Part shown: positions 3,949-22,847 of the stretch, piece by piece | How positions within the stretch are numbered: the first letter of the stretch is position 1 | Layout: each line of letters begins with the position of its first letter | Assembly (NCBI GenBank): GCA_025808555.1 | Contig: CP075526.1 | Span: 1,848,712-1,912,711 of the forward strand | Source: Anaerolineales bacterium | Lineage (GTDB): Bacteria > Chloroflexota > Anaerolineae > Anaerolineales > UBA11579 | Direction: 5' to 3' | Length of the DNA: 64,000 nucleotides | Program-made: the position numbers and the translations under genes | Notes under the pieces: model-generated | What the model was told of the DNA's origin: nothing | Databases searched by the model: none | Seen by the model: only the letters and a program-made list of their open reading frames with translations

Positions 3949-3982
3949 GCAAATTACTCCTGTGAAATGTGCTGTTTTCCTT

Positions 3983-4015
3983 AAAAAGCGCCGGTGGCGT
4001 TAGGCCGACGGCGCT
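3983..4015 (-). terminator. Probable intrinsic terminator downstream of the ABM gene
   Basis: On the minus strand the stem AGCGCCG...CGGCGCT has extra internal pairing and is followed by TTTTT. It lies 70 nt after the ABM stop codon. Confidence 0.5.
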
Positions 4016-4086
4016 AGGTTAGGCACTGCAAGGTTTGATTGTAATTTGTGGTTGGGGATTGCGTCAAGCGCAGGCGAGTGGGCCAG

Positions 4087-4401: not shown

Positions 4402-4511
4402 ACTCTAGATGAGAGGGCTCCTTTTGGGCGTCCTCATTCTTTGGGATTCTGTGCGAAAAAGGTGGAATTTTGCTCATGTAAGCCTTTGAGGAGCCTAAAA
4501 AGATTTCGTTG

Positions 4512-4541
4512 TTGACTCGGCTGTTTGATTCGCTGTATAGT
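4512..4541 (+). promoter_or_regulatory. Sigma-70-type promoter candidate upstream of rpoD
   Basis: TTGACT (4512-4517), an 18-nt spacer, then TATAGT (4536-4541). It sits in an AT-rich divergent intergenic region. Confidence 0.45.
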
Positions 4542-4569
4542 TTCTGTCCACTTGGAAAGCTAAAACAGA

Positions 4570-4599
4570 CCAGCAACAGCACCCGTTGCTGGCTTTTTA
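4570..4599 (+). terminator. Terminator-like hairpin in the rpoD leader (possible attenuator)
   Basis: Stem CCAGCAAC (4570-4577), a 7-nt loop and GTTGCTGG (4585-4592), followed by CTTTTTA. It lies between the candidate promoter and the rpoD start at 4656. Confidence 0.4.
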
Positions 4600-4655
4600 T
4601 GCCACTTTGTTTACGCAGTTCCTTGTGAGTCCCACAATCGAAAGAGCGCCTGTAA

Positions 4656-5900
4656 GTGCTGAACGAAAAACTCCTTAGCGACATCGTTGAAAACGACCAC
4701 GATCAAGACCGAGATCATCCTGCAGTTGTCCGTTTAATTGAACTAGGCCGTAAGCAAGGCTACGTCACGATTGATGACATCCTCAACTTCTTCCCTGAAG
4801 CTGAGCGTGATGTAGACAAGCTGGAAGAGGCGTTTGCCGCCCTGTTGGGCGCCGGCGTGGCTTATGTGGATGACCCTGAGGGTCTGGAACAAGTGGCCGA
4901 CGCTGAATTAAGCGACGATGACGCCGAAGAGGAAGAGAGCGAGAGCCGCCGCCAGCGAGAAGCTGACGACAACTATCTGGCCAATATCGACACCGATGAC
5001 ATGATCGGCCTGTATCTGAAGGAAGTGGGGCGGGTACCCCTGCTAACTGCTCCTGAGGAAGTCAGCCTGGCCAAGCGGATCGAGAAGGGCCGGATTGCCC
5101 GCGAGATTCTGGCCTCCGGACGGTTGGAAGAGGCTCAGCGTGGCAAGTATCGCTTCAATATTGAGGATGGCTGGGCGGCCCGTGAGCATCTGATCACGGC
5201 CAACAGCCGCCTGGTGATCAGCGTGGCCAAGAAGTACATGGGCCGCGGAGTACCGTTCCAGGACCTTATTCAGGAAGGCAATATTGGCCTGATCCGCGCC
5301 GCCAAGAAGTTCGATTATCGCCGCGGCCACAAGTTCAGCACCTATGCCACCTGGTGGATCCGCCAGGCGGTGACGCGGGCGATCGCTGACCAGGGCCGCA
5401 CCATCCGTGTGCCGGTGCACATGGGTGACCAGATCAACAAGCTGCTGCGCGTGCAGCACCAGCTGACCCAGCGCCTGGGCCGCGAACCATCGGTGGAGGA
5501 GCTGGCCGCTGCTCTGGATGTACCCGCCAAGAAGGTGGAGAACATGATCCAGGTGGCGCGCCGCCCGCTCTCGCTAGAAACCCCGACCGATGACGAAGAA
5601 GATTCGGTGTTGGGCGACTTTATTCAGGATCACGAAGCCCCGGCTCCTGACGACTCGGCCACCTACAACCTGCTGCGCCAGCATCTCGGCGAAGTATTGG
5701 ACGGGCTGCCGCCGCGCGAAGTGCGCATTCTGCAGCTTCGCTACGGTCTGCTGGATGGCCAGGCGTACACGCTGGAGGAAGTGGGCAGCAAGATGGGCGT
5801 GACGCGCGAGCGTGTGCGCCAGATCGAGGCGCAAGCCTTGAGCCGCCTGCGCCACCCGGTGGTGAGCAAGAAGCTCAAAGAATATCTGGGCGAGAACTAG
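4656..5900 (+). CDS. rpoD: Primary RNA polymerase sigma factor (sigma-70 family, group 1)
   Basis: 414 aa. The N-terminal half is acidic (region 1.1 and spacer). Region 2 reads FSTYATWWIRQAVTRAIADQGRTIRVPVHM and region 4 reads YTLEEVGSKMGVTRERVRQIEAQAL. The start codon is GTG. Confidence 0.95.
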   Translation: MLNEKLLSDIVENDHDQDRDHPAVVRLIELGRKQGYVTIDDILNFFPEAERDVDKLEEAFAALLGAGVAYVDDPEGLEQVADAELSDDDAEEEESESRRQREADDNYLANIDTDDMIGLYLKEVGRVPLLTAPEEVSLAKRIEKGRIAREILASGRLEEAQRGKYRFNIEDGWAAREHLITANSRLVISVAKKYMGRGVPFQDLIQEGNIGLIRAAKKFDYRRGHKFSTYATWWIRQAVTRAIADQGRTIRVPVHMGDQINKLLRVQHQLTQRLGREPSVEELAAALDVPAKKVENMIQVARRPLSLETPTDDEEDSVLGDFIQDHEAPAPDDSATYNLLRQHLGEVLDGLPPREVRILQLRYGLLDGQAYTLEEVGSKMGVTRERVRQIEAQALSRLRHPVVSKKLKEYLGEN

Positions 5901-5955: not shown

Positions 5956-6477
5956 TCACAGTACTGAATTGCTTCCATATCTAGCGAAGTATTCTTCGCG
6001 AGTAGCGACCACAGGCAGGAAGAAGGCGGCGGCGAAGTAAACGAGGATGAACGCGCCGCCGGTGACAAGGGCCAATCCAATAAAGATCGTTCGCAGCCAA
6101 TCGACATTGATATCCGAGTAGGCCGAAAACCCCTGGCAAATCCCAAGGATGTCCTGGCCTTCTTGAATGCGCACCAATCGACGCCGGCCTTTTGGAGGCG
6201 TTTGGGCTGAGGCAGGCTCGCCAGCTACGGGACCGACCTCGGCCAGGACAGCGTCAATGTCGGCAAGAGTGAGGACTTGCTCGGCGCTGCCCAGGCGGGC
6301 GGCGAGCTTATCACCGATGGATTGCTCGAGATCGCGCAGCACCTCCTCATGGTCAGGATCGGCTTGCAGGCTGTTTTTGGCCCGGTCGAGATAGCGGCGC
6401 AGCCCGTCGTAAGCATCCTGCTTGGCTTTGAAGCTGGCGGTGTGGCCGCTAAGGGTAATGAGTACTAAATTCTTCAC
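5956..6477 (-). CDS. PspC domain-containing membrane protein
   Basis: 173 aa. The C-terminal segment ILGICQGFSAYSDINVDWLRTIFIGLALVTGG matches the PspC N-terminal-domain pattern and is followed by a TM helix. It starts 3 nt downstream of padR. Confidence 0.75.
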   Translation of the reverse strand: MKNLVLITLSGHTASFKAKQDAYDGLRRYLDRAKNSLQADPDHEEVLRDLEQSIGDKLAARLGSAEQVLTLADIDAVLAEVGPVAGEPASAQTPPKGRRRLVRIQEGQDILGICQGFSAYSDINVDWLRTIFIGLALVTGGAFILVYFAAAFFLPVVATREEYFARYGSNSVL

Positions 6478-6480
6478 TGT

Positions 6481-6804
6481 CTATTCTCCTAGTTTATTGA
6501 TAAGTGTGGTCAGGTATTTCCAGTAGGCATTGAACTCAGTCAACTGCTTACGCCCAGCGGGGGTCAGCTTGTAATACTTGCGCGGCGGGCCTGAGTCCGA
6601 CTCCTGCCATTCGTAATCCAGTAGCTCATCGCGACGCATCTTGCTGAGCAGCGGGTAGAGCGTACCTTCCTGGGTGGCGAAGTCGGTCTGGCTCAGACGC
6701 TGCAGGATGTCTGCGGCATAGACCTTGCCGGCCGAAACGATCACCAGGATCAGAAATTCCAGCAAGCCCTTGCGCAAAGGGGTAAGTTTGGGGGACGTTG
6801 TCAT
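6481..6804 (-). CDS. PadR family transcriptional regulator
   Basis: I take the start at the internal ATG (6804), giving MTTSPKLTPLRKGLLEFLIL. The winged-helix PadR pattern is GTLYPLLSKMRRDELLDYEWQESDSGPPRKYYKLTPAGRK. The longer ORF to 6966 would overlap the neighbouring gene. Confidence 0.85.
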   Translation of the reverse strand: MTTSPKLTPLRKGLLEFLILVIVSAGKVYAADILQRLSQTDFATQEGTLYPLLSKMRRDELLDYEWQESDSGPPRKYYKLTPAGRKQLTEFNAYWKYLTTLINKLGE

Positions 6805-6868
6805 GCAAGCTACCTTGTTGAATAAAGGTACTATGACATATGCTAGTTTGTCAAGAGGGAATTTTGAG

Positions 6869-8431
6869 CTAGGGCAAACGTTGGTAGAGCGCCAAGCCCC
6901 CCGAGCCGTAGATGTCAGTTGGCCAGAAGTGGGTGCGCTCGTAGGCTGACTGAAAACGCGGATCAAGCAATAAGCCGGAACGGCCGTAGATCTCCAGGAT
7001 GATCACATAATCCGGCAGTTGATCCATTACCAGATCTGGTGCGACCGCGTATTGGAAGTCACCATACAAGGCGGGGTCAAGCGGATAGTAGGGCAAGGTT
7101 TCTTTTGAGTTTAGGCCCACCAGATCAAGGATGCGTGCCTCGGGCAGCTGGTAGCCCAGCACGCCCACATCCGCAGCGGCCACCGTGATCCGTTCAGCGC
7201 TGGTGTGGATAGCGGACTGCACGATCTCAGCGGCTTGGGCGTAGAGCAGCTCTAGCTCGATCCAGGCCATGTGCGGGGCCGGGCGCGCTGGCGGCTGCGC
7301 AGGGCGCAGGGTCCAGCCGTGCAGGGTGGAGAGGAACGGCAGCAGGATGAGCAAGACCGCCAAGGCGCGGGCCGGTGGGGCGTCGCCGATCCTGATGCGC
7401 GCTTTGATGCGCATGGCCAGCGTATGTACGCCCAGAGCAATGAACAAGATGTAAAACGGCAGTGGCGGCGTGAGATACCAGCGGAAGATCAACGGGTTGG
7501 CGATGGAAAAAGTTATGAAGTGCAGCCAGGGGAAGAGCACAAAGGGCCAAACCTCCGGGCGTTGCTTCAGCACAGCCCAGGCCCCGGCAATGAACAAGAA
7601 GGGGTACAGCCATAGCCCCGCGCGCAACCAGGCCGAGCCGAAAGTGAGGTGCTCCAAAAAAGGTGTGGCGAAATGATTGACAAAATTGGAAAGCACGCCC
7701 AACACTTCAGGCCGATAGGCTGTGCTTTTGGCGGCCACGGACTGAGGTAGTGGGCTACCAAAGTACAACCAGGCGAACAAGCCCCACGCCAGCAGGGGCA
7801 AAGCGAAGACGAGGATGGCTTTGCTGTTGGCGCGCCAGAAGTCCCTCCGCAGAAAATTGGGCTGCGAACGCATGGCATGCCAGGCCAGCAGCGGGCCGAC
7901 CAGCAGCACCGCATCCGGCCGGGTGAGGATGGCGGCGGCGCCCAGCCCGGCGGCCAACGGCACACGGTCGTTCAGATACGCCCACAGCATGCCTACGAGG
8001 AGCAAGACATAGACACTAGTCTCTAGCCCGCCGATGGCAAAGGTAACGCTGAAGGGGGCGATGGCCCATATGAGGGCGACGGCAACACCGGCCGGACGGC
8101 TGCCGAGTTGCCGGCCGAGTGCATACAGCAGCACGGTGGTCAGGGCATCTGCGATGGCAGACACAGCCAACGCCAGCAAGGGGAAACTGGCGTTGGCGGC
8201 GCCAAAGGGGAGGGCCAGCAGGGCCAACAGGAAAGTGAACAGCGGCGTGGTGGTGCCGAGCACCGGCTGGCTGGGATTGTAGACAAAGCCGAAGCCTTCA
8301 AGGATGTTGCGCGCATAGCGGAACGTGATGTAAGCATCGTCAATGGTGCGCGGGCCGGGCAGCAGACGGGCGAACAGTGCCAGGGCGAACAAGGCGATGA
8401 GTAGCCAGGGGACCGAAGACTTGCGCGGCAT
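6869..8431 (-). CDS. Polytopic membrane protein, putative GT-C-fold glycosyltransferase (block 1, member A)
   Basis: 520 aa with more than 10 hydrophobic helices. The acidic first-loop motif TIDDAYITFRYARNILEG is paralogous to the motif in member F. The function is tentative. Confidence 0.6.
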   Translation of the reverse strand: MPRKSSVPWLLIALFALALFARLLPGPRTIDDAYITFRYARNILEGFGFVYNPSQPVLGTTTPLFTFLLALLALPFGAANASFPLLALAVSAIADALTTVLLYALGRQLGSRPAGVAVALIWAIAPFSVTFAIGGLETSVYVLLLVGMLWAYLNDRVPLAAGLGAAAILTRPDAVLLVGPLLAWHAMRSQPNFLRRDFWRANSKAILVFALPLLAWGLFAWLYFGSPLPQSVAAKSTAYRPEVLGVLSNFVNHFATPFLEHLTFGSAWLRAGLWLYPFLFIAGAWAVLKQRPEVWPFVLFPWLHFITFSIANPLIFRWYLTPPLPFYILFIALGVHTLAMRIKARIRIGDAPPARALAVLLILLPFLSTLHGWTLRPAQPPARPAPHMAWIELELLYAQAAEIVQSAIHTSAERITVAAADVGVLGYQLPEARILDLVGLNSKETLPYYPLDPALYGDFQYAVAPDLVMDQLPDYVIILEIYGRSGLLLDPRFQSAYERTHFWPTDIYGSGGLALYQRLP

Positions 8432-8529
8432 GCGGGCAATGGTAAATCGAAAACAAGCTTGCTGTTCAAATAATCGCTAGTCAATTTCACTTAACATGAA
8501 ACAAGGGTGGATGAATTACTATTGCGCGC

Positions 8530-9984
8530 ATGTCCTTTCGTCGCATGGTTGTAGCGCTGACGTTTATCGCCATCTTTGCGATGGCGTTGCGCATTTCGAC
8601 TGATACGGATACCTGGTGGCATTTGCGGGCCGGGCAGGAGGTCGTGGAAAGCGGCGTGCCCAAGGTTGATGTGTACTCGCACACGCGGGCGGGGACGCAG
8701 TGGCTGTACCCCAGCGCCGCCTGGCTGAGCGAGGCGCAGCTGTACCTGGTGCATGCGTGGGGCGGGTTTGTCGGGCTCAACCTGTGGGTGGCGGCGCTGG
8801 TTACGCTGGCGTTCGCGTTCGTGTATGCGGCGCTGCCGCGCGGCGGCCTTTTCCTGCGCAGCGCGGTACTGCTACTGGCGGCCACCAGCTCGGCGGTGTA
8901 TTGGGCGGCGCGGCCGTATTTGTGGAGCTTTGTGTTCAGCGCGCTGTGCCTGTGGTTGCTGGAAGCGGCCCGCCGTGGCCAGCCGCGCCGCCTGCTGTGG
9001 CTGCCGCTGGTGATGCTTGCGTGGACCAACAGCCACCCGGGCTTTGCGGTGGGCTTTATCTTGCTGGGCATCTTTACCGTGGAGCGGCTGGCCGCTTGGT
9101 GGCCGGTACGCAAGCAAACCGGCAGCGCAAAACGCGCGTGGCGCGAGTGGGGGCAGTACCTGGCGCTGGCAGCGGGCGGCATGCTGTTGGCGGTGTGCAC
9201 CAACCCCTCCGGACCGGTAATGCTGCGCTATCCCTTCGATACGGTGGAGATGGGTGTGCTGCGCGGATACATCCAGGAGTGGCAATCGCCCAATTTTCAC
9301 GAAGCGCGGGTGTGGCCCTTTGCGGCACTGCTGGGTCTGACTGGATTGGCGCTGATCTTTGCGCCGCGGCGACCAGCAGTGTATGACCTGCTATTGGTAG
9401 CGACGCTTGGCGGCATGAGCCTGCTGGCGGCGCGTAACATTGCCTTGTTTGCACTGGCTGCACCGATCGTGTTGAGCCGCAACATGCCCAACGGTGTTGT
9501 GAAACTGGAGAAGAAACTGCGCTTCAGGCCGAGACCGACGCGCCTGCAAGGGGTCTTACACGCAGTCCTGCTGGTGCTGGCGCTGGCCGCCTTGGTGGCC
9601 AAGGCCAGCCGCGTGCTGCCGAAGCATTTGAACGAGCATCAGTTCAGGGCCAGCTTGCCGGTGGCGGCGGTGGAGTATATGAAAGCGCAGCAACCGCAAG
9701 GGCAAATGTTCAACTCGTATAATTGGGGCGGCTACCTTATCTGGGCGCTGCCCGAGTACCCGGTATTCGCTGACGGGCGCACTGACTTGTATGGCGATGA
9801 GCTGCTTGGCGAATGGCTGCAGATCGCGAATGCCGAGCCGGGCTGGGCCAATATGCTGGCCCAGCGCGGCGTCAAGCTGGTCTTGCTGGAGCCGGAGTGG
9901 GCGTTGAGCAAGCTGCTGCCGGCGGCAGGCTGGCAGCTTTTGTACGAAGACGAGAACACACGATTGTTTGGACAATCTGAATGA
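8530..9984 (+). CDS. Polytopic membrane protein, putative GT-C-like (block 1, member B)
   Basis: 484 aa with many TM helices. The N-terminal loop motif is TDTDTWWHLRAGQ. The C-terminal soluble part is FNSYNWGGYLIWALPEYPVFADGRTDLYGDE. It is divergent from member A. Confidence 0.55.
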   Translation: MSFRRMVVALTFIAIFAMALRISTDTDTWWHLRAGQEVVESGVPKVDVYSHTRAGTQWLYPSAAWLSEAQLYLVHAWGGFVGLNLWVAALVTLAFAFVYAALPRGGLFLRSAVLLLAATSSAVYWAARPYLWSFVFSALCLWLLEAARRGQPRRLLWLPLVMLAWTNSHPGFAVGFILLGIFTVERLAAWWPVRKQTGSAKRAWREWGQYLALAAGGMLLAVCTNPSGPVMLRYPFDTVEMGVLRGYIQEWQSPNFHEARVWPFAALLGLTGLALIFAPRRPAVYDLLLVATLGGMSLLAARNIALFALAAPIVLSRNMPNGVVKLEKKLRFRPRPTRLQGVLHAVLLVLALAALVAKASRVLPKHLNEHQFRASLPVAAVEYMKAQQPQGQMFNSYNWGGYLIWALPEYPVFADGRTDLYGDELLGEWLQIANAEPGWANMLAQRGVKLVLLEPEWALSKLLPAAGWQLLYEDENTRLFGQSE

Positions 9985-10580
9985 GCGCTGACCCCCACAA
10001 CACCACAGTCACACGCGGCCACGGCCTGCTGGAATCGTTTCTTTCACGGATGCGGGCCAACAAAGCCAATTCGCTAATTCCTGATGAGTTGCGCAAAGGC
10101 GCCATTCTGGATATTGGCTGCGGCAGCTTTCCGTACTTTTTGACGCACACAGAGTTTGAGCAGAAATTTGCCGTCGACCAGCTGGCGCCCTCGGCGCCGG
10201 ATGAAAGCATCACCTGGCATGTGCGCAACCTGAACGAAACGCCCAGCCTGCCATTTGACGACGGATCGCTGAGCGTGATCACGCTGTTGGCGGTGGCCGA
10301 GCACATCCAGCCGGAGAGCCTGGCTGGCATTCTTAAGGATGCCTACCGCGTGCTCAAGCCCGGCGGGCGGGTGATCCTGACTACGCCGGCGGGCTGGACG
10401 GATGGTTTGCTAAAGTTCATGGCGCGGGTCGGCCTGGTGAGCAGCGAAGAGATCGATGAGCATGTCATCGGCTATACCAAACCCTTGCTGGCTGAGCAAT
10501 TGGAGCGGGCAGGCTTCACAACATTCAAAGTGGGCACATTTGAATTTGGCCTCAACCTGTGGGCCATGGCCAAGCGGTAA
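9981..10580 (+). CDS. Class I SAM-dependent methyltransferase
   Basis: 199 aa. Motif I is ILDIGCGSFPY and the post-I/II region is LKPGGRVILTTP. Its ATGA start overlaps the stop of member B. Confidence 0.85.
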   Translation: MSADPHNTTVTRGHGLLESFLSRMRANKANSLIPDELRKGAILDIGCGSFPYFLTHTEFEQKFAVDQLAPSAPDESITWHVRNLNETPSLPFDDGSLSVITLLAVAEHIQPESLAGILKDAYRVLKPGGRVILTTPAGWTDGLLKFMARVGLVSSEEIDEHVIGYTKPLLAEQLERAGFTTFKVGTFEFGLNLWAMAKR

Positions 10581-10582
10581 CC

Positions 10583-11800
10583 ATGCGCACTGCCTGGCCG
10601 CGCATTGTATTGAGTGTTGCTGTGCTGGCCGTATTGGCAACTGCCCTGACGGCGGTGAACCTGCGTTTCACGCGGGTGAGCCCGGGCGGCAATGACTTTC
10701 TGCCGCGCTGGGTAGGCACGCGATTGTTCATCTCGGAACGACACAGCCCATACAGCGCCGAGACCACCGCGGCCATTCAGGACCGCATGTACGGCCGTTC
10801 AGCCGAAGAGGGCGAGGACGCGGCCTTGTTTGCGTACCCCTTCTATTCCATGCTGGTGTTTGCACCCTTCGCCATGGTGGAGGACTACCCGTTGGCGCGG
10901 GCGTTGTGGATTACTGCCCAGGAGATCGCCGTGGCGGCCACGGTGCTGGCCGCGCTGGGGTTTAGCGGCTGGCGACCCGGCCGCTGGCCTCTGGTGGCGC
11001 TGCTGCTATTCGCCTTTACCTGGTTCCATAGCGCCAAGCCGCTGGTGGACGGCAATGCGGCTGTGATGGTGAGCATGTTCATGGCGCTGGGCTTGTATGC
11101 CATGCGGCGGGGGCGGGATGGTTTGGCGGGCATGGCCTTTGCGCTCAGCACAATCAAGCCGCAGATGGTGTTGCTGCCGCTGGTGTTGATCTGTGCCTGG
11201 GCGCTCTCGCACAAGCGGCGCAGCCTGCTGGTTGCATTTGGCGTGAGCCTGCTGGCGCTGCTGGCGGCTTCGTTTGCTTTGCAGCCCAGCTGGGCGGTTG
11301 AAAATGTAGCGCAGGTCTTGCTGTACGGTGGCTACAGCCCGCCGGGCACGCTAATCAGCGTCTTCAGCGCATGGTGGGGAGACACAGGACACACTGCCGG
11401 GCTGGTGGTGAGCGCATTGCTGGGTCTGTTGCTCTTCTATGAATGGGTGAGCGCGGCGGGGCAACGTTTTGACTGGCTGCTGTGGACGCTGTGCGTGACC
11501 TTGGCGCTGAGCCCGTTGGTGGGCATGCCCTCCACAAGCTCCAACCATGTGATCTTGTTGCTGGCTGTGGTGTGGCTGCTGGCCATGTGGCAACGCCGCA
11601 CCGGGCAGCCGCGTGCAGTGTGGGTGCTACTGCCGATACTGTTTGTAGGCATTTGGGCTTTGTTCCTTTTCACGCTGGAGCAAGAGCAGGCCCAGTTCGG
11701 AGAGCATCTCAGCTTGTTGCTGACGGCGCCGGTCTTCCTGGCTGTCAATTTCTATTGGTTGCGCTGGTGGTTGCTGCGCCCGCAGGGAGTGAAAGCGTGA
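10583..11800 (+). CDS. Polytopic membrane protein, DUF2029/GT87-like putative glycosyltransferase (block 1, member C)
   Basis: I take the ATG at 10583, 2 nt after the methyltransferase stop; the track ORF begins at 10559. About 405 aa and hydrophobic throughout, with the N-terminal loop GGNDFLPRWVGTRLF. Confidence 0.6.
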   Translation: MRTAWPRIVLSVAVLAVLATALTAVNLRFTRVSPGGNDFLPRWVGTRLFISERHSPYSAETTAAIQDRMYGRSAEEGEDAALFAYPFYSMLVFAPFAMVEDYPLARALWITAQEIAVAATVLAALGFSGWRPGRWPLVALLLFAFTWFHSAKPLVDGNAAVMVSMFMALGLYAMRRGRDGLAGMAFALSTIKPQMVLLPLVLICAWALSHKRRSLLVAFGVSLLALLAASFALQPSWAVENVAQVLLYGGYSPPGTLISVFSAWWGDTGHTAGLVVSALLGLLLFYEWVSAAGQRFDWLLWTLCVTLALSPLVGMPSTSSNHVILLLAVVWLLAMWQRRTGQPRAVWVLLPILFVGIWALFLFTLEQEQAQFGEHLSLLLTAPVFLAVNFYWLRWWLLRPQGVKA

Positions 11801-13755
11801 AAGCGCGCCCGCTGCTGGCTGCCGCGGTGTTGCTGTGGTTTGCCACTGGGTTGGCGTATTACTACGCCTTCCATCGCCCGTTCACGCCCGAGTTCGCGCT
11901 GCGGGCTGTGCTGGCGGCGCGTGACCTTGCGTGCACCGCGCTGCTGTTTGCAGCTGCGGGTGGCCTGGGGCTGCGCTTGCTGCCCAGCTTGCCGCTTGCG
12001 CCGCTGGCGCGGTTGGCGGTGCGGGCCGCAGCTGGCCTGGGGCTGCTGAGCCTGGCTTATCTACTGCTGGGTTCCACATTGGGCACAGGAACAGGGCTGG
12101 CCTGGTTGTTGTTGCTGGGCCTGCTGGTGTGGCTGCGCCGCGAGGTGCTGGCCTGGTGGCATGATGCGGCCGGGCTGGGAGTGCTGTGGCAAGCCAGCGG
12201 GCGGCTGGGCCGCATACTTGCTTGGCTGAGCGGCGCGGTGGTGCTGGCCGCGCTGCCGGTAGCGCTGGCACCGCCCTTGGTATTTGATGCGCTGGTCTAT
12301 CACCTGACCCTGCCAAAGATCTATCTGTTGCAGGGCCAGGTGGGCTATGTGCCCGAGATCATGCACTGGGGCCAGCCGCAGTTGGTACACATGCTGGTGA
12401 CCTGGGCTGGCGCGCTGGGGGTGGGGCATGGTGCACTGGTGGCGTGGGGGCTGGGCGTGCTAGCGCTGCTGGGCTTATTGGGCCATGTGGCTGAGCGCTG
12501 GGGGGCGCGGCTGGGTTGGGTGGCGGTGGCAGCGCTGTTAAGCGGCGCCTCGCTGGCTGCATCGTTGAGCTCAGCGTATATGGATTGGGCCGGAGTCTTG
12601 TTCGGCTGGGGCGTGCTCCTGTTCCTGGACCTATGGCAAGAGACGCGCCAGCCGCGTTGGCTGGTTTGGGCCGGCGTCTTTTGCGGGCTGGCATTTGGGA
12701 CCAAGTACACCGCCGGCATCCTGGCTCCGTTAGGTTTACTGGCGATCATGTTCGCCGGCGGGGCAAGTTGGCGTGAAGGGTTGCGCTATCTGGCAGCTGC
12801 GCTGGCCTTGGCGTTGCCCTGGTTGGCGCGAAACTTCTTCGCCACCGGAAACCCCTTCTATCCCTTGCTGCTGCCTGGCGGCGAAATGGACGCGCTGCGG
12901 ATTGCATTGGTGCAGACGGCTACGCCGCAGGGCAACTGGCTGGACGTAATATTGCTGCCCTGGCGGGCCACCTGGCTGGGCGTGGAGTACGGCCGCGTGG
13001 GCAATGCGGCCGCTTATGACGTCTCGGTGGGGCCGTTGCTGCTGCTGTTCGGCCTGCTGGCGCTGGTGCCATGGACGCGGGCGCATGCCCACCTGCGCAA
13101 GACCGCGGCCTGGTTTGCTCTGGGTGGCATGCTGGTATGGGGGCTGCTTGGCCGTGTGAACGGGCATGCCATTCACACGCATTTGTATTTCAGTCTGTTC
13201 CCCTCGTTCGCGATACTGGCGGCGTATGGCTTTGGCGCGGTGGGCGGGCTGCGCCTGGGCGCGGTGCGCCTGCCGCGCATTGCTGCCGCGCTGGCCGTGC
13301 TGGCGCTGGGGCTGAGCGCAGTGCAAAGCAGCCTGGAGCTGGCCGAGCGCGGCGTGGCTGAACTGTGGGGCGGAGGGTTGAACGAGCAAGGCTATTCGGA
13401 ACGCAATCTGGGTCTGTATGCGCTGGTGATGGATGCCCTGCCGAAAGAGGGGCGCACGCTGATGCTGTGGGAGGCGCGCGGCCTGGCCTGCGCACCGTTG
13501 TGTGACCCCGACGAGGTGATCGATCGCTGGCAACACGACCTCGCACTGCTTGGTTCTCCCGAAGCGGTGATCGACAGTTGGCGCACAGCAGGCTACGAAT
13601 TCGTGCTGTATTACCGCCTTGGCGCAGAGTTCGTATACAACGATGCTGAGCGCTTTCATGCGTTTGATATGGGCCAGTTGGAGGCCGCGTTGGCACAATT
13701 ACCCGTAGTGCAGAATTACAACGGCGACTACGTGCTCTACGCGCTGAAGCCATGA
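11797..13755 (+). CDS. Polytopic membrane protein, PMT_2/ArnT-like putative GT-C glycosyltransferase (block 1, member D)
   Basis: I take the GTG at 11797, which overlaps the member C stop (GTGA); the track ORF 11482-13755 has a 5' extension lying inside member C. About 652 aa. It has the loop motif FDALVYHLTLPKIY and a C-terminal soluble domain. Confidence 0.6.
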   Translation: MKARPLLAAAVLLWFATGLAYYYAFHRPFTPEFALRAVLAARDLACTALLFAAAGGLGLRLLPSLPLAPLARLAVRAAAGLGLLSLAYLLLGSTLGTGTGLAWLLLLGLLVWLRREVLAWWHDAAGLGVLWQASGRLGRILAWLSGAVVLAALPVALAPPLVFDALVYHLTLPKIYLLQGQVGYVPEIMHWGQPQLVHMLVTWAGALGVGHGALVAWGLGVLALLGLLGHVAERWGARLGWVAVAALLSGASLAASLSSAYMDWAGVLFGWGVLLFLDLWQETRQPRWLVWAGVFCGLAFGTKYTAGILAPLGLLAIMFAGGASWREGLRYLAAALALALPWLARNFFATGNPFYPLLLPGGEMDALRIALVQTATPQGNWLDVILLPWRATWLGVEYGRVGNAAAYDVSVGPLLLLFGLLALVPWTRAHAHLRKTAAWFALGGMLVWGLLGRVNGHAIHTHLYFSLFPSFAILAAYGFGAVGGLRLGAVRLPRIAAALAVLALGLSAVQSSLELAERGVAELWGGGLNEQGYSERNLGLYALVMDALPKEGRTLMLWEARGLACAPLCDPDEVIDRWQHDLALLGSPEAVIDSWRTAGYEFVLYYRLGAEFVYNDAERFHAFDMGQLEAALAQLPVVQNYNGDYVLYALKP

Positions 13756-15266
13756 AGACGAAGAGCTATCTCACGTTGGGGCTGGCTGGGCTGCTGGTCT
13801 TTGTGGTTGCGGCGAGCCTGCAGCGCAGCCCCGGCTATATGGATGCGGAATATTACTTGCTGACCGGGCAGCAGCTGGCCGCCGGCCGCGGCTTCACCGA
13901 GCCGGTGCTGTGGAACTATCTGGATGCGCCGGCCGGCTTGCCGCATCCATCGCACGCGTACTGGATGCCGCTGCCGTCGCTATTGGCGGCGCTGGGCGCA
14001 GCGCTGTTTGGTGAGAGCTTCAGCGCCGGGCGGGTGCTGTTCATTTTGGTCGCCGCCCTGCTGCCGCCGTTGACCGCCAAGCTGTGCATGCAGCTGACCG
14101 GGCGGCGCGGCTCGGCGCGGCTGGCGGGCGCGCTGGCTTTGTTGCCTGGTTTCTATCTGCCCTTCCTCACCACCACGGATAGCTTTGCCATTTGCATGCT
14201 CCTGGGCGCAGCCTTCTTTATATGCATGACGCGCGAGGACAAGCCTGCCTGGTGGAGTGTGATGCTGGGTGTGCTGGCTGGCCTTCTGCACTTGGCGCGC
14301 GCCGAAGGCCCGCTGTGGCTGCTGCTGGCTTTCGTCGCAGCCTGGCGGATGAAAGGCCGCGGGGCTGCCAGCCAGGCTGGGTTGGGCTATTTGCTGGTGA
14401 TGCTGCCGTGGTTCGTGCGCAACTGGCTGGCCTTCAGCAGCCCGCTGGCGCACGGCGCGGGCAGCAGCCTGTGGCTAACCGAATATGACGAGCTGTTCAG
14501 CTTCCCGGCCAGCCTGCTGACCTTCGACGCGTGGGTAGCCAGCGGCATCGGCGCTATCCTGGCGGCGCGGCTTTCCGCGTTGGGCCAGAACCTGGCCAGC
14601 GCGGTGGTGGTGAGCGGGCTGGTGGCGCTGGCCCCGCTGGTGGTATGGGGTGCATGGCGCTTGCGCGGTCACTTCGCCGTACGCCTGGGCGCGGCGGCCT
14701 GGCTGGCCTTGCTGCTGGTGTTCAGTTTTGTGTTCCCGTTCTCTGGGGCGCGGGGCGGCTTCTTCCACGCTGCGGCGGTTTTGCAGCCGCTGGTGTGGGC
14801 ATTGGCGGCGGCGGGTTTGCACGCGGCCTTGGAGTGGGGCAGCGCGGCGCGCGGTTGGCAGGTAACGCGGGCCGGGCACATCTTCTCGATCGGCATATTG
14901 ATAGTGGCGTTGGCGCTTAGCGCGTATGCGGTGCAGCAGCGCGTGCTGGCCGGTGGTTGGGATGCGAGTGCGCAGAATGCCGCAGCTTTGCACGCACGTT
15001 TGAGTGCGCTGGGCGTGGGAGAAGATGAGATTGTCATGGTGAATAACCCGCCAGGTTTTAGCCTGGTTAGTGGCAGGCCTGCGATCGTCATCCCGCATGG
15101 CGGGCTGCAGGCCGGCATGCAGGCGGCGCGGCAATACGGCGCCAGCATCCTGTTGCTGAAGGCGGGGCAGCCCGGTTGGAGCGATATCTATGAAGCTGGA
15201 CCGCTCTTGAGTAGCCTGCAATACTTGGATGAAGTGGATGGCACGCGCATCTTCCGCCTTCCGTAG
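13752..15266 (+). CDS. Polytopic membrane protein, GT39/ArnT-like putative glycosyltransferase (block 1, member E)
   Basis: 504 aa. Its ATGA start overlaps the stop of member D. The first-loop motif is SPGYMDAEYYLLTGQQLAAGRGF, followed by many TM helices. Confidence 0.65.
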   Translation: MKTKSYLTLGLAGLLVFVVAASLQRSPGYMDAEYYLLTGQQLAAGRGFTEPVLWNYLDAPAGLPHPSHAYWMPLPSLLAALGAALFGESFSAGRVLFILVAALLPPLTAKLCMQLTGRRGSARLAGALALLPGFYLPFLTTTDSFAICMLLGAAFFICMTREDKPAWWSVMLGVLAGLLHLARAEGPLWLLLAFVAAWRMKGRGAASQAGLGYLLVMLPWFVRNWLAFSSPLAHGAGSSLWLTEYDELFSFPASLLTFDAWVASGIGAILAARLSALGQNLASAVVVSGLVALAPLVVWGAWRLRGHFAVRLGAAAWLALLLVFSFVFPFSGARGGFFHAAAVLQPLVWALAAAGLHAALEWGSAARGWQVTRAGHIFSIGILIVALALSAYAVQQRVLAGGWDASAQNAAALHARLSALGVGEDEIVMVNNPPGFSLVSGRPAIVIPHGGLQAGMQAARQYGASILLLKAGQPGWSDIYEAGPLLSSLQYLDEVDGTRIFRLP

Positions 15267-16707
15267 GCAGGCGCTCATTCTTAGCGTGTTGGCCGCGCTG
15301 AGCATGGCGGGGTACGCCCTGTATAGCAATCTGCAACATGGGCCGGGCTTTCCCTTGGATGATGCCTGGATCCATGCGACCTATGCGCGCAATTTGGCGC
15401 AGTATGGCGAGTGGGCTTTTATCCCTGGGCAGCCTTCGAGCGCGGCGACCAGCGTCGTGTGGGTGCTGCTGCTGGCGCCGGGCGCTTGGCTTGGCCTGGC
15501 GCCGACCCTGTGGGCTTGGTTGCTGGGCTGGCTGGCGCTGTGGTTGACTGGCGTGATGGGCATGGCGGTGATTGCACAACTGGCGCCGCAGCAGGCACGC
15601 TGGGCTCCGTGGGTTGGCGCACTGCTGGTGCTTGAATACCACCTGGTGTGGGCGGCGCTGTCAGGCATGGAGACGGTGCTGTTTGCCGCGTTGTGCTTGA
15701 CGGCACTACACCTGGCGCTGCGACCCGTAGCGCACGCGGTGGCTGCAGGCGCGCTGGCTGGGCTGGCCATGCTGGTGCGGCCCGAAGGGCTGACCCTGCT
15801 GGTGCCGCTGGCGGTTGCCGTGCTGGCTATGCGGCGAAACAGGTTGAGGAGCTTGCTGCAATTGGCGGTGGGCCTTCTTCTCTTTCTTGTTCCGTATTTA
15901 TTTTTCAATCACAGCTTGTCTGGCACCTGGTGGCCTAGCACGCTGTATGCCAAGCAAGCCGAGTATGCGGCCTTACTGGCACAGCCCGTGTGGCTACGTT
16001 GGGCGGCGCAGGCTGCCGCACCGCTGACCGGCTTGGGCCTGGTGGCGTTGCCGGGTTTTGTGTTGCTCGTAGTGGATGCGATCAGGCAGCGTACCTGGCT
16101 GCGACTGGCCTGGGTAGCCTGGGTGTTGGGCTTCCTGCTCTTGTTTGCGCTGCGCCTGCCGGTGGTGTACCAGTACGGCCGCTACGCCATGCCGGTGTTG
16201 CCCGTCTACCTTGTGCTGTCGGTGGCCGGAGCGGCCAGCGCGCTGACACATATGCGCAACCCAGCCTGGCGGCGCAGGCTGGCCGCCGCGTGGCTGGCAA
16301 GCGCGGCCCTGGTGGCGGTAGCCTTCTACGCGCTGGGGGCGCGAGCCTTCCAGCGCGATGTTGCCTTCATCGAAACCCAGATGGTGGCCACGGCCCGCTG
16401 GGTGGCGGCCAACACCGCCACCGACGCGCGCCTGGCCGCGCATGATATTGGCGCGCTGGGCTACTTTGCGCCGCGGCTTTTGATGGACCTGGCTGGCCTC
16501 GTTACGCCAGAGCTTGTGCCGTTCATGCAGGATGAGACCCAACTGGCCGCTTATCTTGATCAGGCCGGCGTGGAGTATCTGGTGGCGTTCCCTCACTGGT
16601 ACGACCAACTTCCCGCAGGGCAGGAACTGTTGTATCGAGCGCAAGCCTATGCAGATGAAGCTGGGTTGGGGCGGCTGAGCGTCTACCGTTGGGTTGGAGC
16701 GCCTTAA
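15229..16707 (+). CDS. Polytopic membrane protein, putative GT-C glycosyltransferase, paralog of member A (block 1, member F)
   Basis: 492 aa. The motif FPLDDAWIHATYARNLAQYG parallels DDAYITFRYARNILEG in member A. The start is uncertain (15229 or 15238) and overlaps the 3' end of member E. Confidence 0.6.
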   Translation: MKWMARASSAFRRQALILSVLAALSMAGYALYSNLQHGPGFPLDDAWIHATYARNLAQYGEWAFIPGQPSSAATSVVWVLLLAPGAWLGLAPTLWAWLLGWLALWLTGVMGMAVIAQLAPQQARWAPWVGALLVLEYHLVWAALSGMETVLFAALCLTALHLALRPVAHAVAAGALAGLAMLVRPEGLTLLVPLAVAVLAMRRNRLRSLLQLAVGLLLFLVPYLFFNHSLSGTWWPSTLYAKQAEYAALLAQPVWLRWAAQAAAPLTGLGLVALPGFVLLVVDAIRQRTWLRLAWVAWVLGFLLLFALRLPVVYQYGRYAMPVLPVYLVLSVAGAASALTHMRNPAWRRRLAAAWLASAALVAVAFYALGARAFQRDVAFIETQMVATARWVAANTATDARLAAHDIGALGYFAPRLLMDLAGLVTPELVPFMQDETQLAAYLDQAGVEYLVAFPHWYDQLPAGQELLYRAQAYADEAGLGRLSVYRWVGAP

Positions 16708-16773
16708 GGCTGCAAATCATGCCTATGCTATACTGCGCTTGAATCGATACTTGTGAGCGAACGAAACAGCACA

Positions 16774-17451
16774 ATGTCAAAAATCAATGTCGTGGTTGTT
16801 GAAGACCATCCCATCTTCCGGCAGGGGCTTATCGATTCTTTCTCGCTTGAGAAGGACCTGCATGTGATTGGGCAAGCCGCCGAGGGCCACGAAGGGCTGA
16901 CGCTCATCAAGAAGCTGATGCCGGATGTGGCGGTGTTGGATGTAAACCTGCCCAACATCAACGGCCAGCAACTGACCCGCCAACTCAAAGGTGATAAGAA
17001 AGTCAGCACGCGCGTGGTTCTGCTTACCGCCTATGACGACAGCTCACAGGTCATTCATGCCATGGCGGCAGGGGCGGCGGCCTACTGCGTCAAGGATATT
17101 GACCCGGCCAAACTGGTCGAGATCGTACGGGCGGTGGCCAACGGCAGCTTCGTGGTGGGCGAGCAGGTGATGGACCAGGGCGCGTTGCAGCGCTGGCTGG
17201 GGGAACGCAGCGAAGTCTCCGGCCGCGCCTATAGCGACCCGGGCGATCCGTTCGAGCCGCTCTCCAGCCGGGAGATGGAAGTCTTGGAATGCGTGACGCG
17301 AGGCATGAGCAACAAGGAGATCGCCACTCATCTGGATATCAGCCACCAGACCGTCAAGAACCATGTGACCGCGGTATTGCGCAAACTGAATGTAGAGGAC
17401 CGCACGCAGGCCGCCGTGTACGCACTGCGGCGTGGCTGGGTAAGATTGTAG
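16774..17451 (+). CDS. Response regulator, NarL/FixJ (LuxR-type HTH) family
   Basis: The REC domain reads INVVVVEDHPIF ... DVAVLDVNLP, and the C-terminal HTH reads LSSREMEVLECVTRGMSNKEIATHLDISHQTVKNHV. The start could instead be the GTG at 16753. Confidence 0.9.
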   Translation: MSKINVVVVEDHPIFRQGLIDSFSLEKDLHVIGQAAEGHEGLTLIKKLMPDVAVLDVNLPNINGQQLTRQLKGDKKVSTRVVLLTAYDDSSQVIHAMAAGAAAYCVKDIDPAKLVEIVRAVANGSFVVGEQVMDQGALQRWLGERSEVSGRAYSDPGDPFEPLSSREMEVLECVTRGMSNKEIATHLDISHQTVKNHVTAVLRKLNVEDRTQAAVYALRRGWVRL

Positions 17452-17478
17452 GCATGAAGACCTCACCCTGGAGCGAGT

Positions 17479-18540
17479 GTGGCCATATCTGAGAAAGATG
17501 GAGCGTTTGCAGGCTCCATGAGCAGCGGCTCTGCCATGGAAGAGCTGGACCTGGAGATCACCCAGACCCAGCGCGAGCTGGCTGAGATCGACCTGCTTCT
17601 GACGCAAAGCAAGGGCGAGCTGGACAAGCTCACCCAGCGCAACGCCACCATCACAGCCCACCTGCAACAGATCCAGAACCAGATCGATGATGTGCCCGCG
17701 CCGGATATCCGCGTGGCATACGATGCCGCGCTGGAGGCGCAGCAGCGCCTGGTGGTGATGCGCGGCCAGTTTGAAAAATTACACAGCGACAAAGCGCGCC
17801 TGGAACGCCAGTTACAGGTGCTGAAGAAGGTCAAGGACACCGGCGCTACAGAAACCAAGCCGCAGGAGAGCGCACGCAATACCCAAAGCTCGATCGAAGT
17901 CATGATCCAGGCGCAGGAGCAGGAGCGCCAGCGCCTGTCACGCCAGATGCATGATGGGCCGGCTCAGGCGCTCTCTAACTTCATTTTGCAGACTGAGATC
18001 GCGCTGCGCTTGTTCGAGGTGGACCAGGAACAGGCCCGCCAGGAGCTCAACAGCCTGAAGTCGGCTGCCTCCAGCACCTTCCAAAAGGTGCGCGACTTTA
18101 TTTTTGACCTACGCCCGATGATGCTGGATGATCTGGGTCTGGTTCCGACGATCAAGCGCTATGCGGATTATTTGGCTGAGAAGCTGGGTACGGAGATTGC
18201 GGTGAGCGTCACCGGGTCTGAGCGCCGCCTGGAGCCCTATATTGAAGTCGTCGTGTTCCGCGCTGTGCAGGAGTTGCTGAGCAACAATGCCCTGCACAGC
18301 CAGGCCACCAGCATCAAAGTTCAGTTGGACATTAGCCAGCACCAGGTGCGTGCAAGTGTTGAAGACAACGGCCGCGGTTTTGACGCCCATGCCGTGCCGG
18401 CGGAGGCTGAACTGACGCTAAAAGCCATCCGTGAGCGTATGGATCTGTTGGGTGGCACTTTTGACATGGATAGCGCCCCAGGGCAGGGTGCCCGCTTTGC
18501 TTTTGTAGTGCCGGCTGAGGCCAAGGCGCCCGTTCCTTAG
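17479..18540 (+). CDS. Soluble DegS-like sensor histidine kinase (HisKA_3 + HATPase_c)
   Basis: 353 aa with no TM segment and a long N-terminal coiled coil. The H-box is ERQRLSRQMHDGPAQALSN and the ATP-binding motifs are VEDNGRGF and GGTFDMDSAPGQGARF. An alternative ATG start lies at 17518. Confidence 0.85.
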   Translation: MAISEKDGAFAGSMSSGSAMEELDLEITQTQRELAEIDLLLTQSKGELDKLTQRNATITAHLQQIQNQIDDVPAPDIRVAYDAALEAQQRLVVMRGQFEKLHSDKARLERQLQVLKKVKDTGATETKPQESARNTQSSIEVMIQAQEQERQRLSRQMHDGPAQALSNFILQTEIALRLFEVDQEQARQELNSLKSAASSTFQKVRDFIFDLRPMMLDDLGLVPTIKRYADYLAEKLGTEIAVSVTGSERRLEPYIEVVVFRAVQELLSNNALHSQATSIKVQLDISQHQVRASVEDNGRGFDAHAVPAEAELTLKAIRERMDLLGGTFDMDSAPGQGARFAFVVPAEAKAPVP

Positions 18541-18567
18541 AAAAAGCGCATTAGTACTCAAATTCTA

Positions 18568-18596
18568 TTGCGTAAAAAAGCCCTCATTTCTATAAT
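18568..18596 (+). promoter_or_regulatory. Sigma-70-type promoter candidate for flp
   Basis: TTGCGT (18568-18573), a 17-nt spacer, then a consensus TATAAT (18591-18596). It lies about 50 nt upstream of the flp start. Confidence 0.55.
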
Positions 18597-18646
18597 TTAT
18601 TCACCCTGCATTGGCAGGGTAGCTGTGAGGAAAGGAGGAACTCCTA

Positions 18647-18787
18647 ATGTTCAACTCTCAAAAGGGTCAAGGGCTCGTAGAATACGCGCTGATCTTGGTG
18701 CTGGTCGCCATTGTGGTCATCGTGATCGTGTCCCTGCTCGGCGGATCTATTGGTAACGTATTCAGCAACATCATCTCCAACATCTAA
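18647..18787 (+). CDS. flp: Flp family type IVb pilin (prepilin, 46 aa), not in the supplied ORF track
   Basis: The strong RBS AGGAAAGGAGGA ends 6 nt before the ATG. The translation is MFNSQKGQGLVEYALILVLVAIVVIVIVSLLGGSIGNVFSNIISNI. It contains the Flp processing motif G-x4-EY (G7...E12 Y13) followed by a hydrophobic helix. Confidence 0.9.
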   Translation: MFNSQKGQGLVEYALILVLVAIVVIVIVSLLGGSIGNVFSNIISNI

Positions 18788-18811
18788 TCGTTTCGGAGAC
18801 CTTTCATTTGT

Positions 18812-18843
18812 AATGCAGCCCTGGCGATTGCCAGGGCTGCATT
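18812..18843 (+). terminator. Perfect 14-bp hairpin after flp (partial terminator or RNA stabiliser)
   Basis: Stem AATGCAGCCCTGGC, loop GATT, stem GCCAGGGCTGCATT. There is no clean U-tract (TCGTCTCT follows). It lies between the pilin gene and the assembly genes. Confidence 0.5.
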
Positions 18844-18972
18844 CGTCTCTCGCCCATGGCGCGGCTTAAATGCATAGCCCCAGGGCGGGATTGGCAAATT
18901 GGCTTGTTATCATGTAGACTACTTCTGCGCCTGGCCTGCGGGCTTATTTAGAGGCGGCGAAAGGGTTTAACT

Positions 18973-20124: not shown

Positions 20125-20154
20125 CGCTAGGCAGAGGCATGTAGGACAAAAAGG

Positions 20155-21384: not shown

Positions 21385-21404
21385 GTAGGCAGGAGAACTG
21401 AAGC

Positions 21405-22847
<1,443 letters not shown>

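Follow-up and report, generated by a model that had tools for sequence, protein, structure and literature searches.

A conserved block of putative GT-C glycosyltransferase genes in Anaerolineales and its possible role in envelope glycan assembly

Organization of the gene block

We analyzed a 64,000-nucleotide stretch of DNA from an uncultured Anaerolineales bacterium (assembly GCA_025808555.1, contig CP075526.1, positions 1,848,712 to 1,912,711 of the forward strand), hereafter called the window, and in particular a block of seven genes at positions 6869-16707. Six of these genes, here named A to F, encode large membrane proteins, and the seventh, MT, encodes a putative methyltransferase. Scanning for open reading frames (ORFs) reproduced all seven genes where the first-pass annotation, made by a model from the sequence alone, had placed them. 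Gene A (6869-8431, minus strand, 520 amino acids) is transcribed divergently from B, and the other six genes lie on the plus strand: B (8530-9984, 484 amino acids), MT (9981-10580, 199 amino acids), C, D (11797-13755, 652 amino acids), E (13752-15266, 504 amino acids), and F. The ORF of C opens with GTG at 10559 and ends at 11800 (413 amino acids); because its orthologues begin at MRTAWPR, the start is most likely ATG 10583, giving a product of 405 amino acids (10583-11800). The ORF of F opens at 15229 and ends at 16707 (492 amino acids), and from the start used by NCBI it spans 15238-16707 (489 amino acids); the protein is 100% identical to KIT08_09295, an NCBI protein of an Anaerolineales metagenome-assembled genome. 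This agrees with an origin in the Chloroflexota, the phylum in which the first-pass annotation had proposed to look for the gene order. We regard all seven as real genes, since their homologues range from hundreds to thousands per gene; at E ≤ 1e-3 there were 1,799 for A, 1,526 for B, and 3,016 for F.

The block is tightly packed. By their coordinates, start and stop codons overlap at 9981 (ATGA), 11797 (GTGA), and 13752 (ATGA), and E overlaps F by 29-38 nucleotides. In the first-pass annotation, this arrangement was taken to imply stoichiometric co-expression of the genes, which is more than overlapping codons can show. A and B are separated by 98 bp (8432-8529), which, judging from the divergent layout, presumably contain a shared promoter region. 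We found a weak sigma-70-like match within it (8447-8474, plus strand); the count of promoter matches in this region was not above that in shuffled sequence, and promoter and terminator scanning overall yielded no signal beyond the shuffled background with which the transcripts could be delimited.

Predicted GT-C identity of the six membrane proteins

Sequence profiles, Pfam matches, and structure models agree in placing all six large proteins in the GT-C class of glycosyltransferases, as the first-pass annotation had proposed, with evidence of differing strength for the individual proteins. For A, C, D, and E, the assignment comes from sequence and profile comparisons. For B and F, the two proteins with no Pfam hit, it comes from structure models compared with the PDB using Foldseek. 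Every match of B or F with a probability of about 0.8 or more was a GT-C or GT-C-like membrane protein, and transporters appeared in the two lists with probabilities of 0.2 or less and template-modeling (TM) scores below 0.2; none of the six proteins resembles a transporter. An all-against-all comparison of the block families with hhalign connected F with E (95.7% probability), A with E (91.5%), and E with D (91.3%), while B and C were unlinked to the other families at the sequence level.

Each of the six proteins contains many hydrophobic segments. The earlier description of them as hydrophobic almost end to end, however, does not hold. In the models of B and F, about 11 long helices precede a C-terminal domain of mixed helices and strands, and A, D, and E have non-hydrophobic C-terminal regions of roughly 100-145 amino acids; C has no soluble domain at its C terminus. 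All six proteins carry lysine or arginine ahead of the first transmembrane segment, which fits an outward-facing acidic motif, and we infer an outward-facing topology for A to F.

The six acidic motifs quoted in the first-pass annotation are all present in the sequences and are invariant or nearly so in orthologues (36 sequences each for A, B, and F and 5-14 for C, D, and E). The conserved aspartate candidates are D32 in A, D25/D27 in B, D38 in C (counted from ATG 10583), D164 in D, D31 in E, and D45 in F. In the models of B and F, the conserved aspartates open the first helix after the first transmembrane segment (helix 26-41 in B and 44-59 in F). This is the position described for the GT-C_A enzymes, all of which carry the catalytic aspartate at the tip of the first juxtamembrane helix (PMC12041299). 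The claim that each motif lies in the first predicted loop is borne out by the models of B and F but not by D, whose motif, as read from the sequence, follows about five hydrophobic segments because of an N-terminal extension of about 135 amino acids. GT-C enzymes work at the non-cytoplasmic face of the membrane with polyprenyl-phosphate-linked donors, as established for ArnT, PMT, AftB, PimE, STT3, and Gtr-type systems (PMC11127046; PMC12041299). By their fold class, A to F would be expected to use donors of the same kind.

The proteins encoded at the two ends of the block appear to be AftB-like. A profile built from 36 sequences of the A family matched the structure of mycobacterial AftB (9dlf), a terminal β-1,2-arabinofuranosyltransferase, with an E value of 6.2e-9. 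In the hmmsearch alignment with chain 9dlf_C, TIDDAY of the A profile fell on IADDGL and TRPD on VRPE, the latter containing R221, so that D31-D32 of A were aligned with the DD motif of AftB, which holds the catalytic D62, and R171 with R221. In AftB from M. chubuense, D62 is the essential catalytic aspartate and R221 an essential phosphate ligand (PMC12041299). Among the 36 homologues of A, D31 was invariant and D32 was conserved in at least 90%. The alignment to the AftB structure spans only residues 28-258 of the A profile. Against the AftB equivalog model NF041481, A scored 23.8 bits over residues 30-151 only, compared with a cut-off of 1050, and the possibility that A is an AftB orthologue was therefore rejected.

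The model of F, for which we found no Pfam match, had a predicted local distance difference test score (pLDDT) of 93.3. Its Foldseek matches included ArnT (E = 4e-7), STT3 in second place (E = 8e-7), AftB (TM score 0.61, root-mean-square deviation 5.5), and further ALG9, AftA, AftD, and Pmt4. D44, D45, R184, and P185 of F were invariant in an alignment of 36 sequences. By BLASTP, A and F shared two short matches (33% identity, E = 6e-5 and 1e-3). Despite this weak similarity, the profile-profile comparison of the two families was decisive (hhalign probability 99.5%, E = 7.5e-23, 424 columns), and we thus consider A and F to be homologues, in agreement with their earlier description as clear paralogs. 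Together, these comparisons suggest that A and F are AftB-like proteins and not AftB itself. Genes of the decaprenylphosphoryl-arabinose (DPA) pathway, namely, a UbiA-type phosphoribosyltransferase and DprE1/DprE2, were not seen in the ORF scans of the window.

B has no hit in Pfam or NCBIfam, and its 36 aligned homologues gave no convincing Pfam hit. The AlphaFold2 model of B is confident (pLDDT 92.3, predicted TM score 0.92). Oligosaccharyltransferases ranked first in the Foldseek search, with STT3 at the top (E = 6.5e-8, TM score 0.59-0.61), and the next matches were DPY19, AglB, PglB, ALG12, AftA, EmbB, and AftB. Its C-terminal domain matched the globular domain of AglB (3vu0) with a TM score of 0.52. 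Across the 36 sequences, D25 and D27 and the motifs WxARP, NSH, EW, and DGRTDLY were invariant. When B and yeast STT3 are compared by eye, similar elements occur in the same order (DTWWHLR/DPWFNYR, IQEWQSP/SVSEHQP, and NSYNWGGY...DGRTD/WWDYGY...DNNT).

Sequence tests gave no support for this kinship. The B profile matched yeast STT3, in a sequence identical to PDB chain 6c26_A, with an hhalign probability of 0.2%; the Pfam STT3 model found no match among the 36 B homologues at E ≤ 5; and neither the full-length nor the C-terminal profile of B retrieved an oligosaccharyltransferase from the PDB. The WWDYG motif is absent from B. The conserved motif at the start of its C-terminal domain is NSYNWGGY, which contains no aspartate and which, in our reading and not from an alignment, corresponds in position to WWDYG. 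Furthermore, STT3 also ranked second for the AftB-like F, which suggests that the match of B to STT3 largely reflects the shared fold class. The identification of B as a divergent oligosaccharyltransferase (STT3/AglB/PglB, GT66) was rejected on the basis of the sequence tests and the absence of WWDYG, and was retained as similarity at the level of the fold. We classify B as a putative new GT-C_A family, not an oligosaccharyltransferase. The family is large: from 1.84 billion cluster representatives (50%-identity clusters), a profile search retrieved 32,731 relatives at E ≤ 1e-3, of which 22,618 remained at E ≤ 1e-10. Our literature searches found no paper on this family or on the gene cluster.

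C exceeded the 25-bit cut-off of the Pfam family GT87 (PF09594, PimE-type mannosyltransferases) with a score of 42.5 bits (E = 8.2e-11), and its GGxD motif, including the aspartate, was invariant in 12 orthologues. D and E matched PMT_2 (PF13231, ArnT/PMT-like, GT39/GT83) with 27.7 and 28.1 bits, respectively, against a cut-off of 26.1, and B, C, and F gave no hit to this model. The D motif, FDxLxYH, was conserved in five orthologues, and orthologues of D carry PF26626 (DUF8201) in precomputed annotation. In 14 orthologues of E, six residues of the PGYMDAxYY motif were invariant (P27, G28, Y29, D31, A32, and Y34).

Conservation in relatives and the genomic neighborhood

The GT-C core of the block is conserved. 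We found the full order, with A opposite to B-MT-C-D-E-F and the same flanking genes, in two Anaerolineales metagenome-assembled genomes from NCBI and in one JGI contig, whose A proteins share 77%, 71%, and 57% identity with A of the window. A more distant locus (L008, B 47% identical) has A opposite to B, followed by MT-C-D-E-F, with three extra GT-C paralogues inserted. The six families are conserved as separate families, in the same order, in L001, L005, L006, and L008. Scanning GTDB genomes with the single A sequence yielded two loci. Scanning metagenome contigs with the B alignment yielded 80 loci, with B proteins 37-51% identical, which were searched with profile hidden Markov models of all seven families. 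In 20 of the 32 loci with enough sequence, A was encoded opposite to B and upstream of it. Among the 21 loci with at least 9 kb 3′ of B, C and E were each found downstream of B in 16, and D and F in 13 and 12, respectively; only one had none of the four. The gene order is thus kept beyond the source genome, in metagenome-assembled genomes and dozens of metagenome contigs. The first-pass annotation had named membership in families other than GT-C, variable motifs, and gene order restricted to this genome as observations that would count against it; what we found instead were GT-C assignments, conserved motifs, and a conserved order.

The genes inserted into the clusters of relatives mostly encode more GT-C proteins, including two PMT_2 families, GT87, a PIG-V-like protein, and YfhO. 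Others belong to sugar pathways: an NAD-dependent epimerase/dehydratase and Wzy_C-TPR proteins, each in three loci, and two GT4 enzymes in L007. In L071, a GT2 (236 amino acids), a Methyltransf_11 protein (255 amino acids), and a YdjC-family deacetylase (339 amino acids) directly follow the B homologue on its 3′ side (11494-14442, plus strand). To us, this layout recalls pathways for lipid-linked amino-sugar donors, such as FlmF2/NaxD/FlmK of Francisella. In another locus (L002, ENA contig_6440, 1.9 Mb), apparent frameshifts break the B homologue at 6240-7701 into several ORFs, and its neighbors also look fragmented; assembly errors seem more likely than pseudogenes.

MT matched Methyltransf_23 (7.9e-11) and Methyltransf_11 (6.7e-9) of Pfam and has neither a transmembrane-like peak nor a hydrophobic segment, which points to a soluble class I S-adenosylmethionine-dependent methyltransferase. 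Three close relatives (L001, L005, and L006) also have it, as does L008. Of the 64 metagenome loci with enough sequence, however, just 7 have MT no more than 2 kb from B. MT is therefore an accessory of a subclade and not core, as opposed to the part in the system that it was first given. Since a soluble methyltransferase cannot reach an extracytoplasmic product, MT would most plausibly modify a donor or precursor on the cytoplasmic side.

Downstream of F, after 45 bp, lies a LuxR-type response regulator gene (16753-17451, plus strand; Pfam Response_reg and GerE), followed by a gene for a DegS-like histidine kinase (17479-18540, plus strand; Pfam DegS, HisKA_3, and HATPase_c) with no hydrophobic stretch on reading of its sequence. 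Because the 45-bp gap holds no convincing terminator-like site in the terminator scan, the regulator may be co-transcribed with F; its membership in the system is uncertain. A regulator or kinase homologue follows F in 10 of the 11 related loci with enough sequence. After the kinase comes a Tad pilus locus (CpaB, TadZ, CpaF, and two TadB/C-like genes), within the plus-strand run at 16753-24763. Tad genes follow the regulator and kinase in at least five distant loci, and the arrangement is kept in L031, L051, L054, L075, and L077. Two genes for Flp-type pilins, at 18647-18787 (46 amino acids, between the kinase and CpaB) and 26802-26948 (48 amino acids), are also on the plus strand. Both pilins contain GQGLVEYA, which we take to lie at the prepilin cleavage site; the mature form would be about 36 amino acids, with few serines or threonines and no N-x-S/T sequon.

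On the other side of the block, genes for a PadR-family regulator and a PspC-domain membrane protein (5956-6810, minus strand) lie directly downstream of A on the same strand. Such a pairing is associated with envelope stress. The listed PadR ORF (6481-6966) overlaps the end of A, and PadR in L005 has 109 amino acids; the true start is probably further downstream. The pair stands beside A in L005 as well, and not in more distant loci. Beyond A, a sigma-70 gene containing regions 1.1 to 4, of the primary type, was present in 15 of 18 loci. This part of the window (1603-5900) is syntenic with many loci (L001, L002, L005, L006, L009, L031, and others), the sigma-70 gene occurring in 29 and a gene for an H+-translocating pyrophosphatase in 14. 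Such synteny suggests an unusually stable stretch of the genome backbone.

Initiating phosphoglycosyltransferases, cytoplasmic GT-A/GT-B enzymes, Wzx/Wzy, and Wzm/Wzt are all absent from the block, and no GT-A/GT-B enzyme, Wzx/Wzy protein, or polyprenyl-phosphate-sugar synthase was found among the ORFs scanned in the window. The earlier statement that cytoplasmic glycosylation machinery is missing therefore stands for these ORFs but not for the relatives, in which GT2, GT4, the epimerase, and Wzy_C proteins occur. Similarly, the claim that the window lacks an exporter is right for Wzx/Wzy and wrong in so far as an ABC-2-type permease is encoded at 567-1346 (plus strand), 5.5 kb from the cluster, preceded by a 181-amino-acid ORF (together 25-1346). 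The matching transporter in relatives (L002, L006, L007, and L008) includes an ABC_transp_aux/DUF7088 protein, which we read as GldG-like, and it looks like a gliding-associated or other exporter, not Wzm/Wzt.

Five further genes for large membrane proteins, here called block 2, follow one another at 39330-47629 on the plus strand. They comprise two YfhO-like paralogues (40819-42807 and 44355-46535, the second matching Pfam YfhO with E = 4.5e-30), two paralogues without a family hit that are 31% identical (39330-40829 and 42765-44345), and a full member of the NCBIfam family AZOBR_p60025 (46505-47629; 171.6 bits against a cut-off of 150). No block 2 protein reached an hhalign probability above 20% with any of the six family profiles of the first block, so the two blocks are not simple duplicates. 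In composition, positions 10001-16000 show an AT skew of -0.2 to -0.31 (T over A on the coding strand) and a raised GC content of 0.62-0.65 across the GT-C genes, and the same pattern recurs across block 2. We read both features as a reflection of the codon content of hydrophobic membrane proteins and not as a sign of foreign origin.

What the operon may build

On balance, we think it probable that the block is an extracytoplasmic line for the assembly or decoration of a conserved envelope glycoconjugate. As an operon for an envelope glycan, it would belong to the core genome of Anaerolineales and related Chloroflexota and be inherited vertically. According to this model, the six GT-C proteins would reside in the cytoplasmic membrane with the catalytic aspartate on its outer face, and each would probably move a sugar from a polyprenyl-phosphate donor onto a common lipid- or wall-anchored glycan. 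There would be a fixed division of labor among two AftB-like proteins (A and F), one GT87 protein (C), two PMT_2-type proteins (D and E), and one member of an unmodeled family (B). The genes for making the lipid-linked donors, flippases, and primer would lie outside the block, and the outcome would be a conserved glycoconjugate of the cell surface that is built outside the cytoplasm and is either a lipoglycan or a wall polysaccharide. Both the single shared product and its type are inferred. The six orthologous families, their fixed order, and the overlapping codons argue for distinct steps toward one defined product and not for a strain-variable antigen. The GT-C, sugar-precursor, and lipid-linked-glycan genes inserted in relatives count in favor of a glycan, and the primary-type sigma-70 gene beyond A speaks for a core-genome setting. 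The composition of the envelope layers of Chloroflexota is unsettled and may include polysaccharide (PMC13319060).

The first-pass annotation stated that the block matched no textbook polysaccharide pathway. This was too strong, as the mycobacterial pathways for lipomannan (LM), lipoarabinomannan (LAM), and arabinogalactan and the ALG and glycosylphosphatidylinositol (GPI) pathways in the lumen of the endoplasmic reticulum (ER) are multi-GT-C assembly lines as well. Functionally, the closest analogy appears to be the machinery for LM, LAM, and arabinogalactan in Corynebacteriales, which employs PimE, MptA/B/C, and AftC (GT87), AftB (GT89), AftA, AftD, and EmbA/B/C. In both cases, several GT-C proteins would act in sequence on the outer face with polyprenyl-phosphate sugars made elsewhere, as is known there and proposed here; C belongs to GT87, and A and F resemble AftB, including the DD motif and the phosphate-binding arginine. 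In contrast to Corynebacteriales, the block belongs to Chloroflexota, A is not an AftB orthologue, the genes form a compact unit of almost nothing but GT-C proteins, and there are no Emb-type, GlfT-type, or DPA-synthesis genes nearby; B has no counterpart there.

The ER-luminal pathways provide a second parallel. In N-glycan synthesis (ALG3/9/12/6/8/10 and then STT3) and GPI synthesis (PIG-M/V/B/Z), GT-C enzymes acting one after another lengthen a lipid-linked glycan on the non-cytoplasmic side of the membrane, with dolichyl-phosphate sugars as donors. The likeness lies in B, whose best structural match is STT3, and in ALG9 and ALG12 among the Foldseek matches; the difference is that no sequence-level relation to STT3 or ALG proteins was found and that B has no WWDYG. 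That this system transfers a glycan en bloc is pure speculation.

Three-component systems (GtrA/GtrB/GtrC, ArnC/ArnT, CsbB/GtcA/YfhO, and the GT136 pentofuranose system; PMC11127046) also use a GT-C enzyme with a polyprenyl-phosphate monosaccharide outside the cytoplasm. However, each of them pairs a single GT-C with a dedicated synthase and flippase and acts on a pre-existing glycan, whereas the window has six GT-C proteins and neither partner among the ORFs scanned. One resemblance is the GT2 directly after the B homologue of L071, seen in this one locus among those with inserts that were scanned. Weak matches link three of the proteins to putative GT-C families of NCBIfam: A to AZOBR_p60025 (E = 6e-6), F to LA_3751/LA_3752 (3e-7), and D to LIC_10190 (1e-7). 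All three are far below the cut-offs and thus not members. These families are uncharacterized, the LA and LIC families being from Leptospira, and AZOBR_p60025 is described as a family of cell-surface glycopolymer formation. In a survey of sponge-associated Chloroflexi, GT83 was among the most abundant glycosyltransferase families (PMC6306507).

Several points weigh against an envelope-glycan line. No product, donor, or acceptor has been assigned to any of A to F. The individual family assignments are in part marginal, with D and E exceeding the PMT_2 cut-off of 26.1 bits by no more than about 2 bits and A, at 18.0 bits, not reaching it. The profiles of C and E retrieved no solved structure from the PDB, the former at E ≤ 1 and with PimE included among the structures, so that C and PimE itself are only distantly related. 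Among the window ORFs scanned, we found no polyprenyl-phosphate-sugar synthase, flippase, or priming enzyme; donors for GT-C enzymes are often made by genes located elsewhere. Co-localization does not prove a single shared product. Furthermore, the conserved order may in part reflect a slowly rearranging region, as the H+-pyrophosphatase gene is syntenic with no obvious functional link. Finally, protein glycosylation stands as a rival.

We consider protein glycosylation unlikely, but it is the alternative that survives best. D and E would act like protein O-mannosyltransferases and B like an oligosaccharyltransferase, with secreted or surface proteins, possibly the Flp pilins or a surface-layer protein, as targets. 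The PMT_2 matches of D and E would fit, as would the structural resemblance of B to STT3, AglB, and PglB, the match of its C-terminal domain to 3vu0, and the conserved arrangement of cluster, two-component genes, and Tad genes with two Flp pilin genes near. However, the PMT_2 model is broad and includes enzymes with lipid or glycan acceptors as well, such as ArnT. The resemblance of B to STT3 comes with neither WWDYG nor detectable sequence similarity and is shared by F, and thus reads as a signal of the common fold. The pilins are tiny, with no sequons and few serines or threonines, and nothing positive supports their glycosylation as the purpose of the block. In addition, six to ten distinct transferases are many for simple O-glycosylation, and A and F resemble an enzyme that acts on polysaccharide.

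Slightly less likely in our view is a set of co-regulated but independent envelope modifiers, in which each GT-C would have its own acceptor (a lipid, a teichoic-acid-like polymer, or a polysaccharide), as do ArnT, YfhO, and GtrC, and the clustering would result from shared regulation, for example, by the adjacent two-component system or envelope-stress genes. Outside Corynebacteriales, known bacterial GT-C proteins are mostly single and part of three-component systems (PMC11127046). The variable content of the clusters, the PadR/PspC pair beside A in the window and in L005, and the regulator and kinase after F are compatible with such a set. This explanation does not, however, account for the same six orthologous families in the same order across distant genomes or for the overlapping codons between consecutive genes, and each GT-C lacks the donor synthase or flippase of its own that independent three-component modules would typically have.

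That the proteins are not glycosyltransferases at all but have another polytopic membrane function, as transporters or polymerases with a superficial GT-C likeness, is very improbable, for although these families have no biochemical data, B has no family annotation, and the Pfam scores of A, D, and E are marginal, the high-probability Foldseek matches of B and F are GT-C or GT-C-like, the position of the catalytic aspartate is invariant, and the A profile aligns with D62 and R221 of AftB.

Returning to the envelope-glycan line, a bolder version of it can be formulated, which we consider doubtful. The operon might be a complete extracytoplasmic line for a Chloroflexota-specific envelope glycan, namely, the material of the outer layers seen in these bacteria, which lack an outer membrane with lipopolysaccharide, and it would have an origin separate from that of mycobacterial arabinogalactan and LAM. 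B would then found a new glycosyltransferase family of oligosaccharyltransferase-like architecture, whose step would differ from the addition of single sugars, for instance as en bloc transfer or ligation of the glycan made by the other five proteins, and the whole would be a bacterial analogue of ER-luminal extension followed by STT3.

The sequential action of GT-C enzymes in building an envelope glycan is known; what is new here is the lineage, the layout of an operon of GT-C genes only, its conserved synteny, and the unmodeled B family. Chloroflexota lack genes for lipopolysaccharide and outer-membrane assembly, yet have several envelope layers thought to be made of polysaccharide or protein (PMC13319060). 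The operon is a concrete genetic candidate for the builder of one such layer. The cluster contains six to ten putative GT-C proteins in an order kept across divergent Anaerolineae-type genomes, beside a primary-type sigma-factor gene. Furthermore, B exposes a very large family of membrane proteins with no Pfam or NCBIfam model, whose confident predicted structure points to a glycosyltransferase. To our knowledge, Corynebacteriales are the only bacterial group in which the assembly of a lipoglycan or wall polysaccharide by such a series outside the cell is established. If the product is a glycan of this kind, the strategy would extend well beyond them. Anaerolineae-type bacteria are abundant filaments in activated sludge, digesters, and sediments, and their surface chemistry therefore matters for flocculation and bulking.

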